Source of the DNA: Candidatus Kerfeldbacteria bacterium
GTDB taxonomy: Bacteria; Patescibacteriota; Patescibacteriia; UBA10025; JAHIVO01
DNA: 64,000 bases
Assembly (NCBI GenBank): GCA_016214565.1
Contig: JACROE010000002.1
Coordinates: 792,007-856,006 of the forward strand
Reading direction: 5' to 3'
This document shows, piece after piece, positions 34,561-42,008 of this stretch. Numbering within the stretch: the stretch's first letter is position 1; the number at the start of each line of letters is the position of its first letter. The notes beneath the pieces are model-generated. The model was not told the origin of the DNA and searched no databases. It was given only the letters and a program-made list of their open reading frames with translations. A program made the position numbers and the translations under genes.

Positions 34561-34731
34561 AATATTATCTTCCCCGTGAACGGGCAGGAATGAGCACCTT
34601 TCGATTCCTCAAAAAAAGAGGAGGCCCGTTCGGCTTCATCCGGCATTGCCGGATTCCGCTCAGGGCACTTCGTGGTTGCTGGAACGGCATTGGGCCTGAT
34701 CCCTTTGCATCCGTTCACTCTTGATAATGTT
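34561..34731 (-). ncRNA. SAM-I (S-box) riboswitch aptamer, variant
   Basis: P1 AUUAUC/GAUAAU; AUCAAGAG; P2 GAACG/CGUUC with GGG-AUCAGG-CCC; P3 AGCAACC/GGUGCU; pseudoknot CAGG/CCUG; P4 CCCG-UUCA-CGGG; J4/1 GAAGAU. Confidence 0.88.
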
Positions 34732-34978: not shown

Positions 34979-35257
34979 ATGGAGAAACCTATTGAAAAAG
35001 CATGGTGGCAGCCAGCACTTGCGGTATTTGGTGAAGTTACCGGCTGGATCGTCGCACCGATTTTATTGGCGCTTTTTGGCGGTCGGTGGCTCGATGAGCG
35101 ATTCCAGACTGACCCCTGGTTTTATCTGGGATTGACGGCACTGGCCGTTACGATTACCGTCGTCGGTTTAGTCAAAATTGGAGGAAAATATATTCGACAA
35201 GTCGAAAACATGAAAACAACTAAGAAGCCAGATGAGCGAAACAACCGAACAACTTGA
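34979..35257 (+). CDS. AtpZ/AtpI-family ATP synthase accessory protein
   Basis: GWIVAPI..GGRWLDERFQTDPW; first gene of the atp operon. Confidence 0.8.
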   Translation: MEKPIEKAWWQPALAVFGEVTGWIVAPILLALFGGRWLDERFQTDPWFYLGLTALAVTITVVGLVKIGGKYIRQVENMKTTKKPDERNNRTT

Positions 35258-36134
35258 AGTGACCGTCCAAAACACCGATACGACTATCGGCGGGGTGGAG
35301 GCTGCCGTGGCAGAAACTGAAACGACGACCGAGGCTGGCCATGAGCCGACATTATTTGCCGAACCGATTGCGCATCTTGGCGGTTTTACGGTCACTAATT
35401 CATTATTGAATTCATGGTTAGCCGTTGCCATCATTTGTCTCTTAGCATTTTTTGTGAGTCGAAAAGTGAAGCAAATCCCGCGCGGTATTCAGAATGTATT
35501 TGAAATAGTCGTTGATGGCGCTATGAAGCTGGCTGATTCCGTGACGGGCAAGCGGGCTATAACCGAGAAAATATTTCCTTTTGTTTTTACGCTTTTCCTG
35601 TTTGTATTAATCAACAATTGGCTGGGGTTAATCCCGGGCATTGGTTCCATCGGTTTTCTAGAAATGGAAGAAGGGCATGAAATATTTGTTCCGCTGTTTC
35701 GTGGTGGTACCGCCGATTTGAATACGACGTTAGCACTCGCCATATTCACCGTGATTGGTTCGAACGTGTTTGGCATTTTGATTGTCGGCGGATGGAAATA
35801 TTTTAATAAATTCGTCAATGTACAAGCGTTGGTTGCAATTCCCGGGAAAGTGATCAAGGAGCCCACGTCAATTATTGTGAATCCTATTAAGTTTTTTGTC
35901 GGCATTATTGAAATTATTGGAGAGGTGGCAAAGATTGCCTCACTGTCATTCCGGTTATTTGGTAATATATTTGCAGGTGAAGTATTATTGGCCTCGATGG
36001 CGGTGATATTTGCGTTTGTGTTGCCCATCCCATTTATGTTTTTGGAAATCATTGTTGGTTTGATTCAAGCCCTGATATTCAGTATGCTGACGTTGGTGTA
36101 TTTCTCAGTAGCTGCCTCTAGTGAAGAGCACTAG
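35232..36134 (+). CDS. atpB: ATP synthase Fo subunit a
   Basis: PRGIQN, NNWLGLIPG, TADLN, SLSFRLFGNIFAGE, QALIF. Confidence 0.96.
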   Translation: MSETTEQLEVTVQNTDTTIGGVEAAVAETETTTEAGHEPTLFAEPIAHLGGFTVTNSLLNSWLAVAIICLLAFFVSRKVKQIPRGIQNVFEIVVDGAMKLADSVTGKRAITEKIFPFVFTLFLFVLINNWLGLIPGIGSIGFLEMEEGHEIFVPLFRGGTADLNTTLALAIFTVIGSNVFGILIVGGWKYFNKFVNVQALVAIPGKVIKEPTSIIVNPIKFFVGIIEIIGEVAKIASLSFRLFGNIFAGEVLLASMAVIFAFVLPIPFMFLEIIVGLIQALIFSMLTLVYFSVAASSEEH

Positions 36135-36208: not shown

Positions 36209-36454
<246 letters not shown>

Positions 36455-36534: not shown

Positions 36535-37044
36535 ATGGAAGAATTGGTACAAACATTTCACATTGATTGGAAATTACTCATTGCCCAGCTGATCAATTTT
36601 GGTATTGTTTTGGCAGTGTTATATTTCTTCGCCCTGAAACCATTATTGAAAATAATGAACAAGCGCTCGTCAGATATTGAACAGAGCCTGACCGATGCCA
36701 AACGCATCGAAGAACAATTGAAATCTGCTGAAGTAGAAAAAGAAAAGATTGTTACGGAAGCAAAAAAAGAAGCGCAGATTATTGCGGCACAAGCAGTCGC
36801 CGAAGCAGAAAAAATCCGCGAAGCAAAAGTGCATCAGACTCGCGAGGAAATGGAACGGATGACCGAGCGCGCTAAGCAGGAGATTGCCTCTGAGAAAGAT
36901 CAGATGCTTAAAGAAGCCAAACAAGAACTAGCTGATTTGGTCGTCACCGCCAGTGCTAAAGTTATTGGAAAAGAATTAGACGCGAAAACTCATCATACCT
37001 TAATTCAGAATACGATTACTCACGCTTCTGATAAACATGTCTAA
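36535..37044 (+). CDS. atpF: ATP synthase Fo subunit b
   Basis: IDWKLLIAQLINF..KPL..R followed by a coiled coil. Confidence 0.93.
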   Translation: MEELVQTFHIDWKLLIAQLINFGIVLAVLYFFALKPLLKIMNKRSSDIEQSLTDAKRIEEQLKSAEVEKEKIVTEAKKEAQIIAAQAVAEAEKIREAKVHQTREEMERMTERAKQEIASEKDQMLKEAKQELADLVVTASAKVIGKELDAKTHHTLIQNTITHASDKHV

Positions 37045-37438
37045 GATTACTCCCCGACAATACGCCGTAAGTTTATACGAGTCTGTGGTAGGTAAGACTC
37101 ATGCTCAGATTGAACCATTGCTGCACTCATTTTTGGCTTTACTGCAGGAACACCGGGCGTTGTCACAGGCGGATAAAATTTTGACCGCCTTTCGTACGTA
37201 TGCCTATCAGCAAGAAGACATCGTGGCCGTGACGGCTACGACCGCGCATGAGATTGATCACGCTACGACCGCATCGATTATTAAAAGCTTAGAAAGCGCA
37301 TTGGACAAGAAAGTGGTATTGCAGCCAGCGGTTGATCCAGAGCAGATTGGCGGATTGAAAGTGCGATTTGGCGATGTGGTGGTTGACGGCAGTATTCGTA
37401 CAAAATTAGCGGCATTGAAAGATCATTTGCAAAAATAA
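37037..37438 (+). CDS. atpH: ATP synthase F1 subunit delta (short form)
   Basis: RQYAVSLY, VDPEQIGG..GDVVVDGSIRTKL. Confidence 0.9.
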   Translation: MSKITPRQYAVSLYESVVGKTHAQIEPLLHSFLALLQEHRALSQADKILTAFRTYAYQQEDIVAVTATTAHEIDHATTASIIKSLESALDKKVVLQPAVDPEQIGGLKVRFGDVVVDGSIRTKLAALKDHLQK

Positions 37439-37466
37439 AAAGGAGCCGATCATTATGACCGACTCC
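37431..37466 (-). terminator. Minus-strand-specific terminator within the atp operon
   Basis: GGAGTCGGTCAT-A-ATGATCGGCTCC followed by TTTTATTTTT; no T-tract on the + strand. Confidence 0.75.
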
Positions 37467-37492
37467 AGTGAGAGAGGGGACGGCGTAGGCAT

Positions 37493-37603
37493 CTACGCGA
37501 TAATCATGAACCACATCTTGCACAGTGGATTCAGGCATTCAAGCCAACCAGTTCCCTGACAGGGGGCCTGACAATGCGGGCAGTTGCACTCATGTGCTTC
37601 CAT
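37493..37603 (-). CDS. 36-aa Cys-rich (Zn-ribbon-like) microprotein antisense to the atp operon (not in the ORF track)
   Basis: MEAHECNCPHCQAPCQGTGWLECLNPLCKMWFMIIA; GGAGG-N7-ATG; TTGACA(37687-37682)-N18-TAGGGT; own terminator. Confidence 0.7.
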   Translation of the reverse strand: MEAHECNCPHCQAPCQGTGWLECLNPLCKMWFMIIA

Positions 37604-37680
37604 GTATAACCTCCAATCTAAACGTTAAGAACTATTTTAATCAATATTTTACCTAATACCCTAGCACAGTTAATAAAAAT

Positions 37681-39201
37681 ATGTCAAACACAGACTACAT
37701 CATCGAAGAATTGAAAAAGCGGATTGCTGATTTCAAAGCTGACACCAAAACCGAAAAGGTTGGGACAGTCGAAGAGATCGGAGACGGCATTGTCCGTTTA
37801 TCTGGTTTGTCTGACGTACAAGCGTCGGAAATGATTGAATTACCCGGTGATAAATATGGCGTGGCGTTAAACCTCGAAACTGATACCGTCGGCGCTATTA
37901 TCCTCGGTGATCAAGAAGGTATCAAAGAGGGTGACACTGCCAAGAGTACTGGCCGTATTCTGGAAGTGCCGGTCGGTGATGCTATGGTAGGTCGGGTGGT
38001 GAACCCATTAGGGCAGGCGATTGATGGTAAAGGTGATATTAAAACTGATACGTATTATCCAGTGGAAAAAATTGCTCCACGTGTTATTACCCGAAAATCA
38101 GTTGATACACCACTCCAAACTGGCGTCAAAGCAATTGATTCTATGATTCCGATTGGTCGTGGCCAACGTGAATTGATCATCGGCGACCGTCAAGTGGGTA
38201 AGACCGCCATCGGAATTGATACGATTGTCAATCAAAAAGGCACGGGGGTTATCTGTATCTACGTGGCGATTGGCCAAAAAGAATCAAAGATTGCAAAGAT
38301 TGTGGCTGAACTTGAGCAGGCGGGTGCCATGGATCACACAATTATCGTGGTAGCCGGCGCATCTGATCCAGCCTCATTGGCCTATATCGCGCCCTACGCC
38401 GGATGCGCTATGGGTGAATATTTCATGGACCAAGGCAAAGACGCTTTGATTATTTATGATGATTTGTCCAAACACGCTTGGGCGTATCGCGAAATTTCAT
38501 TGTTGCTCCGACGGCCACCAGGTCGTGAAGCCTATCCTGGTGACGTGTTCTATCTTCACTCACGGTTATTGGAACGCGCGGCGCGCTTAAACGAGAAATA
38601 CGGTGGTGGCAGCTTAACCGCGTTACCGATTATTGAAACGCAAGCAGGTGATATCTCAGCCTATATTCCGACTAACGTGATTTCCATTACTGATGGCCAG
38701 ATTTACCTTGAGCCCGATTTGTTCTACCAGGGTATCCGTCCAGCCCTAAACGTCGGTTTGTCAGTGTCACGTGTCGGTTCGGCCGCACAGATCAAAGCCA
38801 TGAAGAAAGTTGCAGGTAAATTACGTTTGGACCTGGCGCAATATCGAGAACTGGCCGCCTTCGCCCAATTTGGTTCGGATCTGGATGAGGCAACCCGCAA
38901 GCAATTAGAGCGCGGTAAACGATTGACGGAGATTCTCAAACAGAATCAATACCAACCAATGCCGGTAGAGCACCAAGTCGCTATCATTTACACCGCCGTC
39001 AATGGTTACCTGGATGACGTAGCGCCGGAAAAAATTCGTGAATTTGAAGAAGCGTTCCACCAGTATCTCAATGCCTCGCACGCTGATCTCATGAAACGGA
39101 TTGTCACGGAAAAGGAAATGAAAGAAGATTTGGAGAAGCAATTGATTGGCGCGATTGAGGATTTCAAAAAGACGACCGCGTTTGTCACGCCAGCTGCATA
39201 A
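37681..39201 (+). CDS. atpA: ATP synthase F1 subunit alpha
   Basis: [36 protein letters not shown]. Confidence 0.98.
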
Positions 39202-39219
39202 TTAGTTACAAACGATACC

Positions 39220-40107
39220 ATGCCTTCAGGCACAAAAGAAATTCAACGACGCATCCGTTCCGTCACCAACACTAAAAAAATTACCAAGGCGATGGAACTT
39301 GTTTCGGCTGCAAAAATGCGCCGCGCGGTGCAAGCCGTGCTTGCGACGCGCCAGTATGCCCGGACGGCATGGAATATCGTGCAGGATTTAGCGGCCAAGA
39401 CCGATCCCGAACAGCACCAGCTCCTGCAAACCCGTGAGAAAATCCAGCGAATTGGAATGATTATGATCACGTCAAATCGAGGTCTGTGTGGTGGATTTAA
39501 TCGGGAATTAGTCGAAACCGCTGGTAATTACGCATCCGCTCAAGGAGTGCCTGTCGACGTCATTTTGATGGGCAAAAAGGGGAGCACGATTCAGCGTCAG
39601 GGACATACCATCGTGGCTGATTTTGATAAGTTGGACGTTGCCGAAAGCGTCCGGGATGTACAAGCCATGGCGCGAATGGTCATCACTGATTATCTAGATG
39701 GGAAATATGACAAGATTGCCATTGCCTATACTGATTACCAGTCAGCTATCAAGCAAACGCCGCATATCCGACAGTTGCTGCCAATAATTAAAGAGGACGC
39801 CGAATTAGGGCAGACAGAGGGTGCGGCCGAGATAGCTACGAAACAGGACTTTGAATATATGTTTGAACCGTCACCGGCCGCTGTCCTGCAGGCGATGTTA
39901 TATCGGTTAACCGAATTGCAGGTCTATCAAGCATTGCTCGAGTCAAATGCATCTGAGCATTCAGCTCGTATGTTCTCGATGCGCAATGCATCTGATGCCG
40001 CTACTGATATGATCAAAGATTTGACACTTACATTTAATCAAGCCCGCCAGCAAAGCATTACCAGTGAATTGGCTGAAATCAGTGCCAGTCGAGCGGCAAT
40101 CACTTAA
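39220..40107 (+). CDS. atpG: ATP synthase F1 subunit gamma
   Basis: KITKAMELVSAAK, RGLCGGFN, SEHSARM, ARQQSITSE. Confidence 0.97.
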   Translation: MPSGTKEIQRRIRSVTNTKKITKAMELVSAAKMRRAVQAVLATRQYARTAWNIVQDLAAKTDPEQHQLLQTREKIQRIGMIMITSNRGLCGGFNRELVETAGNYASAQGVPVDVILMGKKGSTIQRQGHTIVADFDKLDVAESVRDVQAMARMVITDYLDGKYDKIAIAYTDYQSAIKQTPHIRQLLPIIKEDAELGQTEGAAEIATKQDFEYMFEPSPAAVLQAMLYRLTELQVYQALLESNASEHSARMFSMRNASDAATDMIKDLTLTFNQARQQSITSELAEISASRAAIT

Positions 40108-40140: not shown

Positions 40141-41541
<1,401 letters not shown>

Positions 41542-41564: not shown

Positions 41565-42008
41565 ATGGCAGATACATTACAATTTGAAATCATTACTCCG
41601 GACGGCACGGTTTTTTCTGAAGCAGTAGATGAAGTGGTGATTCCGACGCCGGATGGTGAAATTGGCATTCTACCGCACCATGTGCCGTTAGTGTCGCTGC
41701 TTCAGGCGGGCGAGGTGAGGATTAGAATTGGTGATGAGATTACCTTTTTAGCGGTTTCAAGCGGCCTACTCCAAGTGCATCCTGATAAGGTGGTAGCATT
41801 AGCAGATACAGCAGAGCGCGCAGAGCAGATTGACGAACAGCGTGCTGAGGAAGCGCGCACACGAGCTGCGGAGCTCATGGCGGACAAACGGGTTGACTCG
41901 GAAGAATTTGCCGCGCTGTCAGCCAAGATAGAAAAAGAATTAGCGCGACTACGAGTAGCAAAGCGCCGCACGACACGACGCGTCGACACCATCCGTCCAC
42001 AGTTATAA
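41565..42008 (+). CDS. atpC: ATP synthase F1 subunit epsilon
   Basis: EIITPD, GEIGILPHHVPL, LADTAE. Confidence 0.95.
   Translation: MADTLQFEIITPDGTVFSEAVDEVVIPTPDGEIGILPHHVPLVSLLQAGEVRIRIGDEITFLAVSSGLLQVHPDKVVALADTAERAEQIDEQRAEEARTRAAELMADKRVDSEEFAALSAKIEKELARLRVAKRRTTRRVDTIRPQL

Follow-up and report, generated by a model that had tools for sequence, protein, structure and literature searches.

A minus-strand Cys4-microprotein gene retained between atpH and atpA may make the ATP synthase cluster of a Kerfeldbacteria bacterium a noncontiguous operon

The closest described counterpart of the locus reported here is the noncontiguous operon, in which a gene on the opposite strand lies among the genes of a single operon. 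For the Staphylococcus aureus operon menE-menC-MW1733-ytkD-MW1731 (Saenz-Lahoya et al. 2019, as described in PMC7154746), reciprocal regulation of both transcripts is attributed to colliding polymerases and RNase III processing, the latter also being said there to alter how stable one half of the polycistron is relative to the other (PMC7154746). We analysed a stretch of 64,000 nucleotides (nt) from a Candidatus Kerfeldbacteria genome (GCA_016214565.1, contig JACROE010000002.1, positions 792,007 to 856,006; hereafter the window, whose own coordinates are used unless a contig or locus is named). Its plus strand carries a full F-type ATP synthase (atp) operon, every gene of which is confirmed by Pfam, and the arrangement found there is the same: a gene on the minus strand, encoding a cysteine-rich peptide of 36 amino acids (aa), lies between atpH and atpA. 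We read this locus as a long-retained gene for a Cys4 microprotein that makes the atp cluster a noncontiguous operon, both transcripts being predicted to dampen each other, and we put the probability of this reading at roughly 0.5.

The likeness to the S. aureus operon, as far as that is described in the source cited, extends beyond gene order, since here too a coding mRNA would pair with an untranslated segment inside the polycistronic mRNA, and the genome encodes RNase III (PF14622, 135.6 bits). The differences are that co-transcription of the atp genes and the antisense transcript are deduced here from sequence only, that the insert is a 36-aa microprotein gene in the atp operon of a host from the Candidate Phyla Radiation (CPR), and that its -35 element and terminator T-tract are made from start and stop codons of the flanking genes. 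The excludon (PMC7154746, PMC12288877) shares the idea of mutually exclusive expression of neighbours through overlapping transcripts; excludons as outlined in these sources use long untranslated regions of the neighbouring genes, whereas in the present locus the overlapped unit is contained entirely in an operon spacer. With respect to the product, Halobacterium Brz, reported to be encoded next to bop, which it regulates, provides a precedent for a small zinc-finger protein encoded beside an energy gene under its control (PMC2253796, as far as described there). Among the literature matches listed on antisense or small-protein genes located between atpH and atpA, or for Kerfeldbacteria, zinc ribbons and ATP synthase, nothing relevant was found.

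The spacer between atpH (delta/OSCP subunit in a short 133-aa form; 37037-37438, plus strand; Pfam PF00213, E = 3.4e-26) and atpA (alpha subunit; 37681-39201, plus strand; Pfam PF00006/PF00306/PF02874) spans 242 nt (37439-37680) at 26% GC; the remaining spacers of the operon measure at most 80 nt or give way to gene overlaps. A preliminary description of this DNA had placed a complete minus-strand unit in the gap, and all of its elements were found where it had put them. The unit lies tail-to-tail with atpH and head-to-head with atpA, with promoter-like sites and terminator framing 37431-37650 on the minus strand. Candidate promoter P1 (37687..37658, minus strand) consists of TTGACA at 37687..37682, an 18-nt spacer and TGc-TAGGGT, with the hexamer at 37663..37658. 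Its -35 element is, as had been proposed, built from the start of atpA, being the reverse complement of codons 1-3 (ATGTCAA). The -10 hexamer is present as previously described but weak: just 3/6 positions agree with TATAAT, which is why P1 is absent from the list of the promoter scanner, and a better-scoring candidate exists. This candidate, P2 (37673..37646, minus strand; TTAACT, 16 nt, TAAAAT), is listed by the scanner with 9/12 matches and scores above P1, with a -35 hexamer agreeing at 4/6 positions. The sequence GTTCTTAAC, which had been included among the elements of the unit, is likewise present but amounts to a near-palindrome with arms of 3 base pairs (bp) and is not kept in the congeners.

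Downstream on the same strand, a Shine-Dalgarno (SD) motif, GGAGG (37614..37610), is followed after 6 nt by an ATG at 37603, which opens the small open reading frame (sORF; 37603..37493, stop codon included, minus strand) for the type-A Cys4 microprotein MEAHECNCPHCQAPCQGTGWLECLNPLCKMWFMIIA, 36 aa with 6 Cys; the SD and the reading frame are thus as first described. An intrinsic terminator (37466..37431, minus strand) closes the unit, with an 11-bp hairpin containing 6 GC pairs (37466..37442) followed by TTTTTATTTTT (37441..37431), and its T-tract is templated by the last Lys codons and the TAA stop of atpH. On the plus strand the copy of the hairpin runs into AGTGAGAG rather than into T residues, and the terminator scan listed no plus-strand terminator-like site in the atpH-atpA gap. 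As had been claimed for this gap, the T-tract therefore exists on the minus strand only, and the same holds in all seven genomes that carry such an open reading frame (ORF; see below), so that sparing of atp read-through is a fair structural inference. From P1 or P2 the antisense RNA is predicted to start at about 37650 or 37639, respectively, some 30-42 nt upstream of the atpA ATG. The suggestion that this RNA is antisense to the atpA leader consequently holds in that it would pair with the spacer, but not for the start codon, which RNA from neither promoter is predicted to mask.

By its pattern of conservation the antisense sORF is a real gene, kept as a protein, and we hold it very likely to be both real and expressed. 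The genome holding the window (G000; 1.13 Mb, 3 contigs, 100% complete) forms genus g1 together with the congeners G001 and G002; all genomes compared are metagenome-assembled genomes (MAGs), and the G001 locus stops within atpH. Both congeners carry an ORF in the same gap and orientation, MSDSCHCPLCKTVCTGVGWLECVNLLCRHWFVYLPKPGTLKS (42 aa) in G002 and (GTG)AHCPKCNTLTSGKGWLECPNGLCRHWFIKKP (32 aa) in G001. Over a 25-codon core of the type-A genes of this genus, the proportion of nonsynonymous differences (pN) is 0.24-0.34 against 0.62-0.91 for synonymous differences (pS), and these ratios indicate that the type-A peptide is under purifying selection. It is nevertheless fast-evolving, the congeneric peptides being 47-49% identical to that of G000 with the fold residues kept; between G000 and G002, atpH is 80% identical and the first 120 residues of the alpha subunit are 97.5% identical. 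In the whole genome, only 3 of the 32,273 sORF candidates (start to stop, 25-80 aa) have both GGAGG at -15 to -5 and a Cys4 pattern, where 0.31 would be expected if the two features were independent. The same genome-wide screen returned another GGAGG-led Cys-rich sORF, outside the window (G000 C1:583581-583766, minus strand; 61 aa), which contains repeated CxxCxGxG-like units (CSNCSGTG, CSHCGGSG and CPTCHGSG).

SD use is rare in this genome, with GGAGG ahead of 40/895 crude long ORFs versus 1.5% of random positions, and atpA has no SD in 17/17 genomes of the family, its leaders being A/T-rich. Against this background the strong SDs of the antisense mini-genes are conspicuous. Scanning a collection of genome contigs returned 4 loci, namely the two congeners and two partial matches (E = 3e-4 and 4e-4) in a Virgibacillus and an Acidobacteriaceae record. 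The corresponding scan of metagenome contigs returned a single contig, whose sORF is identical to that of G002; it shows 0 differences from G002 over positions 82-697 and is therefore uninformative on selection.

Several other candidates and explanations for the gap were discarded. A plus-strand ORF with AAGGAG (37455-37559; P0002) is not conserved in G002 or G001, and a supposed paralogue at G000 C3:16335 is not credible. The sORF is not a Cys-rich attenuator leader peptide, since no gene lies downstream on the minus strand and what is conserved (G, W, C) marks a fold instead of repeating a single codon, nor is it the precursor of a ribosomally synthesized and post-translationally modified peptide (RiPP) or a bacteriocin, there being no adjacent modifying or export genes.

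The atpH-atpA gap was measured in all 17 genomes of the family, in each of which atpH is present. Antisense, SD-led, Cys-rich ORFs occupy the gap in 7/17 genomes from 5 genera, and these are the seven longest gaps (G000 242 nt, G002 257, G001 222, G009 365, G005 476, G012 329 and G011 321). Two further genomes have long gaps without an ORF of at least 20 aa (G006 143 nt, G003 148), and in the remaining eight the gap is short (G010 53 nt, G015 30, G008 25, G007 24, G004 22, G016 22, G014 20 and G013 18), so that the cassette is absent, decayed or replaced in 10/17. In G006 the 143-nt gap (L038 1903-2045) is taken up by a hairpin-forming repeat of about 65 nt that also occurs at no fewer than three other sites of that genome with 76-88% identity. 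The preliminary description had proposed comparing the gap in relatives, and there the ORF and its SD proved to be conserved, in both congeners and, in more diverged form, in two further genera; the lack of conservation that it had named as half of the case against the unit is thus not observed.

The frame around the ORFs is conserved as well. All seven ORF-bearing genomes have TTGACA on the atpA start followed 16-18 nt on by a TAnnnT hexamer, which in 6/7 carries an upstream TGn. At the P1 site, G009, G005 and G012 show TTGACA, 16-17 nt and TGt-TAATAT or TATCTT (16 nt and TGt-TAATAT in both G009 and G005); the hexamer of genus g1 agrees with TATAAT at 3/6 positions. A TAAAAT or AAAAAT hexamer lies 28-34 nt from TTGACA in 7/7. 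In the short-gap genomes the -35 site reads TGGACA, TAGACA or TTGGCA in 7/8 and TTGACA in G010. The second codon of atpA is Ser TCA in 9/9 long-gap genomes versus 1/8 short-gap genomes of the family, a link that is weak because TCA is the commonest Ser codon in these atp genes (36/106), is found as well in G207, an outgroup genome with a short gap, and the genomes are related. The SD-like motif upstream of the antisense ORF is present in 7/7, as GGAGG in five, GAGGAG in G002 and AAAGGAG in G011, the ATG behind this last motif being out of frame. At the other end, a GC-rich hairpin of 9-11 bp with a directly adjoining T-tract over the atpH stop is found in 7/7 ORF-bearing genomes and 0/2 of the ORF-less long gaps, and the 66-nt stretches holding these terminators fold at -13.7 to -20.9 kcal/mol in the seven genomes.

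The encoded peptides fall into two types. Type A, in G000, G001, G002, G009 and G005, follows the pattern CPxC-x9-11-GW[LVY][EK]C-x4-C with invariant residues C8, C11, G19, W20, C23 and C28, and CPxC...C-x4-C, the Cys-pair spacing of a zinc ribbon, is found in 5/5 sequences. The G009 form has 78 aa from a TTG start, with two predicted N-terminal helices and then ...TCPSCNCSFSAARGWVECPEPTCKSWWLH; the G005 form has 61 aa (...IRCHRCGEIVIVLSGWYKCPIDNCQ...). Homology of type A across genera is indicated by a match of the g1 profile to G009 inside its atpH-atpA gap (E = 2.5e-4), a BLASTP match between G009 and G005 over 55 ungapped residues (E = 7e-4), and a weak direct match of the g1 profile to G005 (E = 0.017). 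Type B, which is FmdB-like with the pattern C-x2(8)-C-[ND]-[YH]-R-[LF]...CP[KR]C, occurs in G012 (60 aa), in G011, and in G005 (52 aa) as a second SD-led ORF just downstream of type A; in this last genome (L039 1086-1448) types A and B form a tandem flanked by a single promoter and a single terminator, with a separate GGAGG for each. The type-B frame of G011 (L043 1236-1443) has no standard start, the SD-led ATG being out of frame, and the two frames can be joined by a one-base shift in a C5G3 (C/G) run; this break may be a pseudogene, a programmed shift or a MAG assembly error. Profile comparison finds the two types unrelated (hhalign probability 3.6%). A type-B profile recovers G011, G012 and one further clear relative, G017 (E = 7.6e-15), a genome of the same order and another family, where the homologue (58 aa; L082 1513-1689, minus strand) is a free-standing, SD-led gene convergent with uvrA. 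A search of G000 for a type-B gene found none. The ratio of nonsynonymous to synonymous substitution rates (dN/dS) is uninformative for type B, both site classes being near saturation.

Structure prediction and database searches describe the peptide in generic terms. An AlphaFold2 model of the 36-aa peptide (predicted local distance difference test score 83) shows paired beta strands in a small beta-hairpin, zinc-ribbon-like shape, and a Foldseek search of the PDB gave no match at E <= 0.001, its top rows being IBR/RING2 zinc domains at E of about 1 and template-modelling (TM) scores of 0.6-0.75. An exhaustive profile search of 1.84 billion representative proteins yielded no convincing relative of type A: there were 3 matches at E <= 0.001 and 0 at 1e-10, two of the three being repetitive Cys-rich proteins and the third a 63-aa protein with a similar CPHC...YECPNPKC knuckle pair, too weak to be called kin. 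Word-index protein searches with the 42-aa G002 and 78-aa G009 homologues gave no match. Among curated families, the best Pfam value for the G000 peptide was E = 0.27 (DUF7374) with no NCBIfam match, and no peptide reached the cut-off of any Pfam or NCBIfam zinc-ribbon family (e.g., PF09723, NF041915, PF10122 Com); type A of G005 scored 20.2 bits against HVO_2901 (NF041915; cut-off 80), and type B 13.6 bits against Zn_ribbon_8 (PF09723, FmdB; cut-off 34.4). The ESM Atlas returned just generic small zinc ribbons at 0.89-0.91, with about 100/256 features shared. The C(P)xCG zinc-finger mini-proteins (Brz, and the HVO_2901 family NF041915) are likewise stand-alone, measure about 30-80 aa and carry two Cys knuckles, of which the first is CPxC, but the present peptides come from a bacterial lineage, the GWxxC-x4-C second knuckle is a signature of type A's own, and the peptides are not members of that family. 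The peptide is predicted to bind nucleic acid or protein as a generic zinc ribbon; it is connected with ATP synthase by gene position only.

We collected DNA upstream of atpA from 20 outgroup genomes, 15 of which allowed the gap to be measured. In 14/15 it is 4-38 nt, the exception being G101 with 177 nt and no ORF; a long gap is therefore a derived feature of part of the family, and ancestrally atpA would have shared a transcript with atpH. Run against 401 genomes of the class, a profile built from the three g1 peptides gave strong matches only in the three g1 genomes, and of the weak-match loci fetched, only those of G009 adjoin atpH and atpA. The family tree, built from atpA only (330 residues) and hence not settling the number of cassette gains and losses, groups (G006,(G012,(G005,G009))) at 92/90 and genus g1 at 99/94, with the short-gap g3 clade sister to the rest and the remainder a polytomy. 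The simplest history starts from an ancestral antisense cassette of two genes, like that of G005, whose tandem is probably the ancestral form, and proceeds by differential loss. Judged by eye, flanking matches that might have been read as a target-site duplication are A-rich in G000 and G005 and missing in G012 and G011; we do not count them as evidence.

These observations suggest how the two strands might interact. Read-through of the atp transcript across the spacer is inferred from the lack of a plus-strand terminator-like site, from the short outgroup gaps, and from the sequence upstream of atpA in G000, which has neither an SD nor an obvious promoter. Given read-through, the sORF mRNA of about 210 nt would be fully complementary to the atpH-atpA spacer of the atp mRNA, and both strands would be transcribed across this overlap. 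Strong atp transcription would then silence the antisense promoter (sitting-duck interference), whereas activity of the antisense promoter would reduce atpAGDC read-through and could split the fates of atpBEFH and atpAGDC. Through RNA polymerase collisions, sitting-duck interference and cleavage of the duplex by RNase III, expression of the microprotein would be inversely coupled to read-through into these genes. Whether the overlap measurably affects atp expression we regard as close to an even call, and action of the peptide on ATP synthase itself as improbable.

Several points weigh against a noncontiguous operon with mutual dampening. The cassette is dispensable, as the gap is short in 8/17 genomes of the family and ORF-less in G006 and G003. 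Its cargo varies between genera (A, B, or A and B), and the type-B homologue of G017 sits away from atp, on another contig. The promoter call is ambiguous on the sequence, with a 3/6 -10 element for P1 in genus g1 and a 4/6 -35 element for P2. Both the antisense transcript and atp read-through are predictions from the letters, and a plus-strand promoter close to atpA in the 26% GC spacer may exist, which would leave two plain transcription units. Taken together, all this fits a passenger gene without a selected effect on atp.

Such a passenger gene, the 'tolerated insertion' that the preliminary description had kept as its fallback, remains a strong rival: an autonomous cassette would have lodged once, in an ancestor of part of the family, in a permissive slot, and would persist either because the mini-proteins serve some other cellular role or simply for itself, the overlap with atp being tolerated noise without a selected regulatory function. 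We consider this possible, though we would wager against it. The short gaps of the outgroups, the varying state of the gap within the family (18-53 nt in eight genomes, ORF-less at 143 and 148 nt in two, cassette-bearing in seven), its occupation by a genomic repeat in G006, the exchange of unrelated cargo types and the ordinary free-standing type-B gene after uvrA in G017 all favour it. However, the SD, promoter and terminator have stayed intact across 5 genera whose alpha subunits differ by about 15-20%, and the peptide is under purifying selection. A search of the G000 gap for a repeat or miniature inverted-repeat transposable element (MITE) found it single-copy, a second 19-nt match falling inside an unrelated coding region, which makes recent or mobile insertion less likely. 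The physical overlap of the unit with read-through from atp would also remain, so that the passenger account differs from a dampening noncontiguous operon only in whether the overlap matters.

A stronger version of the regulatory reading takes the cassette as a selected switch at the Fo/F1 boundary. With its promoter on the atpA start codon, collisions, together with RNase III acting on the 200-nt duplex, would sever the atp mRNA between atpH and atpA, uncoupling the membrane sector and stalk from the catalytic head, and the peptide would reinforce this by binding the atp transcript or the enzyme. We think this unlikely; if true, it would give a bacterium of minimal genome and few regulators a novel means of adjusting its principal energy machinery.

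Less probable still is that the microprotein is an accessory factor of ATP synthase, an inhibitor or assembly helper binding F1 or delta, and that this explains why its gene stays at the Fo/F1 boundary. Small regulators of F-type ATP synthase include IF1, zeta and the epsilon C-terminal domain. AtpTheta is described as another small protein regulator of the enzyme, and with AtpTheta, IF1 and zeta the present peptide shares small size and an association with ATP synthase, here one of gene position, the address between delta and alpha in 5 genera being the whole case for this role. As characterized in the accounts drawn on here, those regulators are helical, not Cys-rich and not encoded antisense inside the operon, and the peptide resembles them neither in sequence nor in predicted fold; Pfam and NCBIfam scans gave no similarity to a known ATP-synthase regulator and no family. 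Furthermore, the gene is missing from half of the family and from every outgroup examined, genomes that have the same ATP synthase with an equally short delta, and types A and B replace each other, type B being found away from atp in G017.

That the cassette is a domesticated or decaying remnant of a selfish element, such as the zinc-finger part of a free-standing homing endonuclease aimed at the conserved atpH-atpA junction, is very improbable: the junction does accept insertions, as the G006 repeat shows, but the Pfam matches of the seven peptides include no nuclease or homing-endonuclease domain (DUF723/DUF4379, HNH, GIY-YIG), the 1.84 billion representatives hold no longer homologue, and the ORFs are compact, SD-led and evidently under purifying selection in a gap that is single-copy in G000. 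Equally remote is the idea that the atpA leader holds a structured or regulatory RNA region and that the ORF arose from this by chance, for although it is tiny and gene callers evidently pass over such ORFs (the word-index searches with the G002 and G009 relatives were empty), its protein motif is kept while synonymous sites are near saturation, its SD and terminator are conserved, and the gap gave no Rfam match to a known RNA family and no unusual RNA structure, the fold z-scores being only -1.2 and -1.5.

The atp operon is among the most conserved gene strings of bacteria, and here a backward protein gene has been kept inside it for several genera. The locus offers a clean natural setting in which to test how overlapping transcription regulates genes where classical regulators are very few; if the overlap is inert, it is still a well-documented example of an essential operon tolerating an internal convergent gene. 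It also adds two zinc-ribbon microprotein families that standard gene calling and the 1.84 billion database representatives have missed, and it lends support to the view that small genes repeatedly land in the atp-operon spacers of ultra-small bacteria.

The remaining genes of the operon, all on the plus strand, complete the order atpZ-like, B, E, F, H, the minus-strand sORF, A, G, D, C. They are an atpZ-like gene (34979-35257; PF09527, E = 3.9e-10), atpB (35232-36134), atpE (36209-36454), atpF (36535-37044), atpG (39220-40107), atpD (40147-41541) and atpC (41565-42008). The atpZ-like gene overlaps the start of atpB by 26 nt, and in AtpB the ATP-synt_A domain is preceded by an N-terminal extension, about 58 residues long, with a high content of Thr, Glu and Ala. 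The 133-aa delta subunit matches positions 54-172 of the 172-position OSCP profile and so is without the first third of the usual N-terminal domain; this short delta can be aligned over nearly its full length in family members and in 15 outgroup genomes, whether the cassette is present or not. Directly upstream of the atp operon, on the minus strand (34562-34730), lies an S-adenosylmethionine (SAM) riboswitch (RF00162) that scores 48.7 bits against a gathering score of 44.4.

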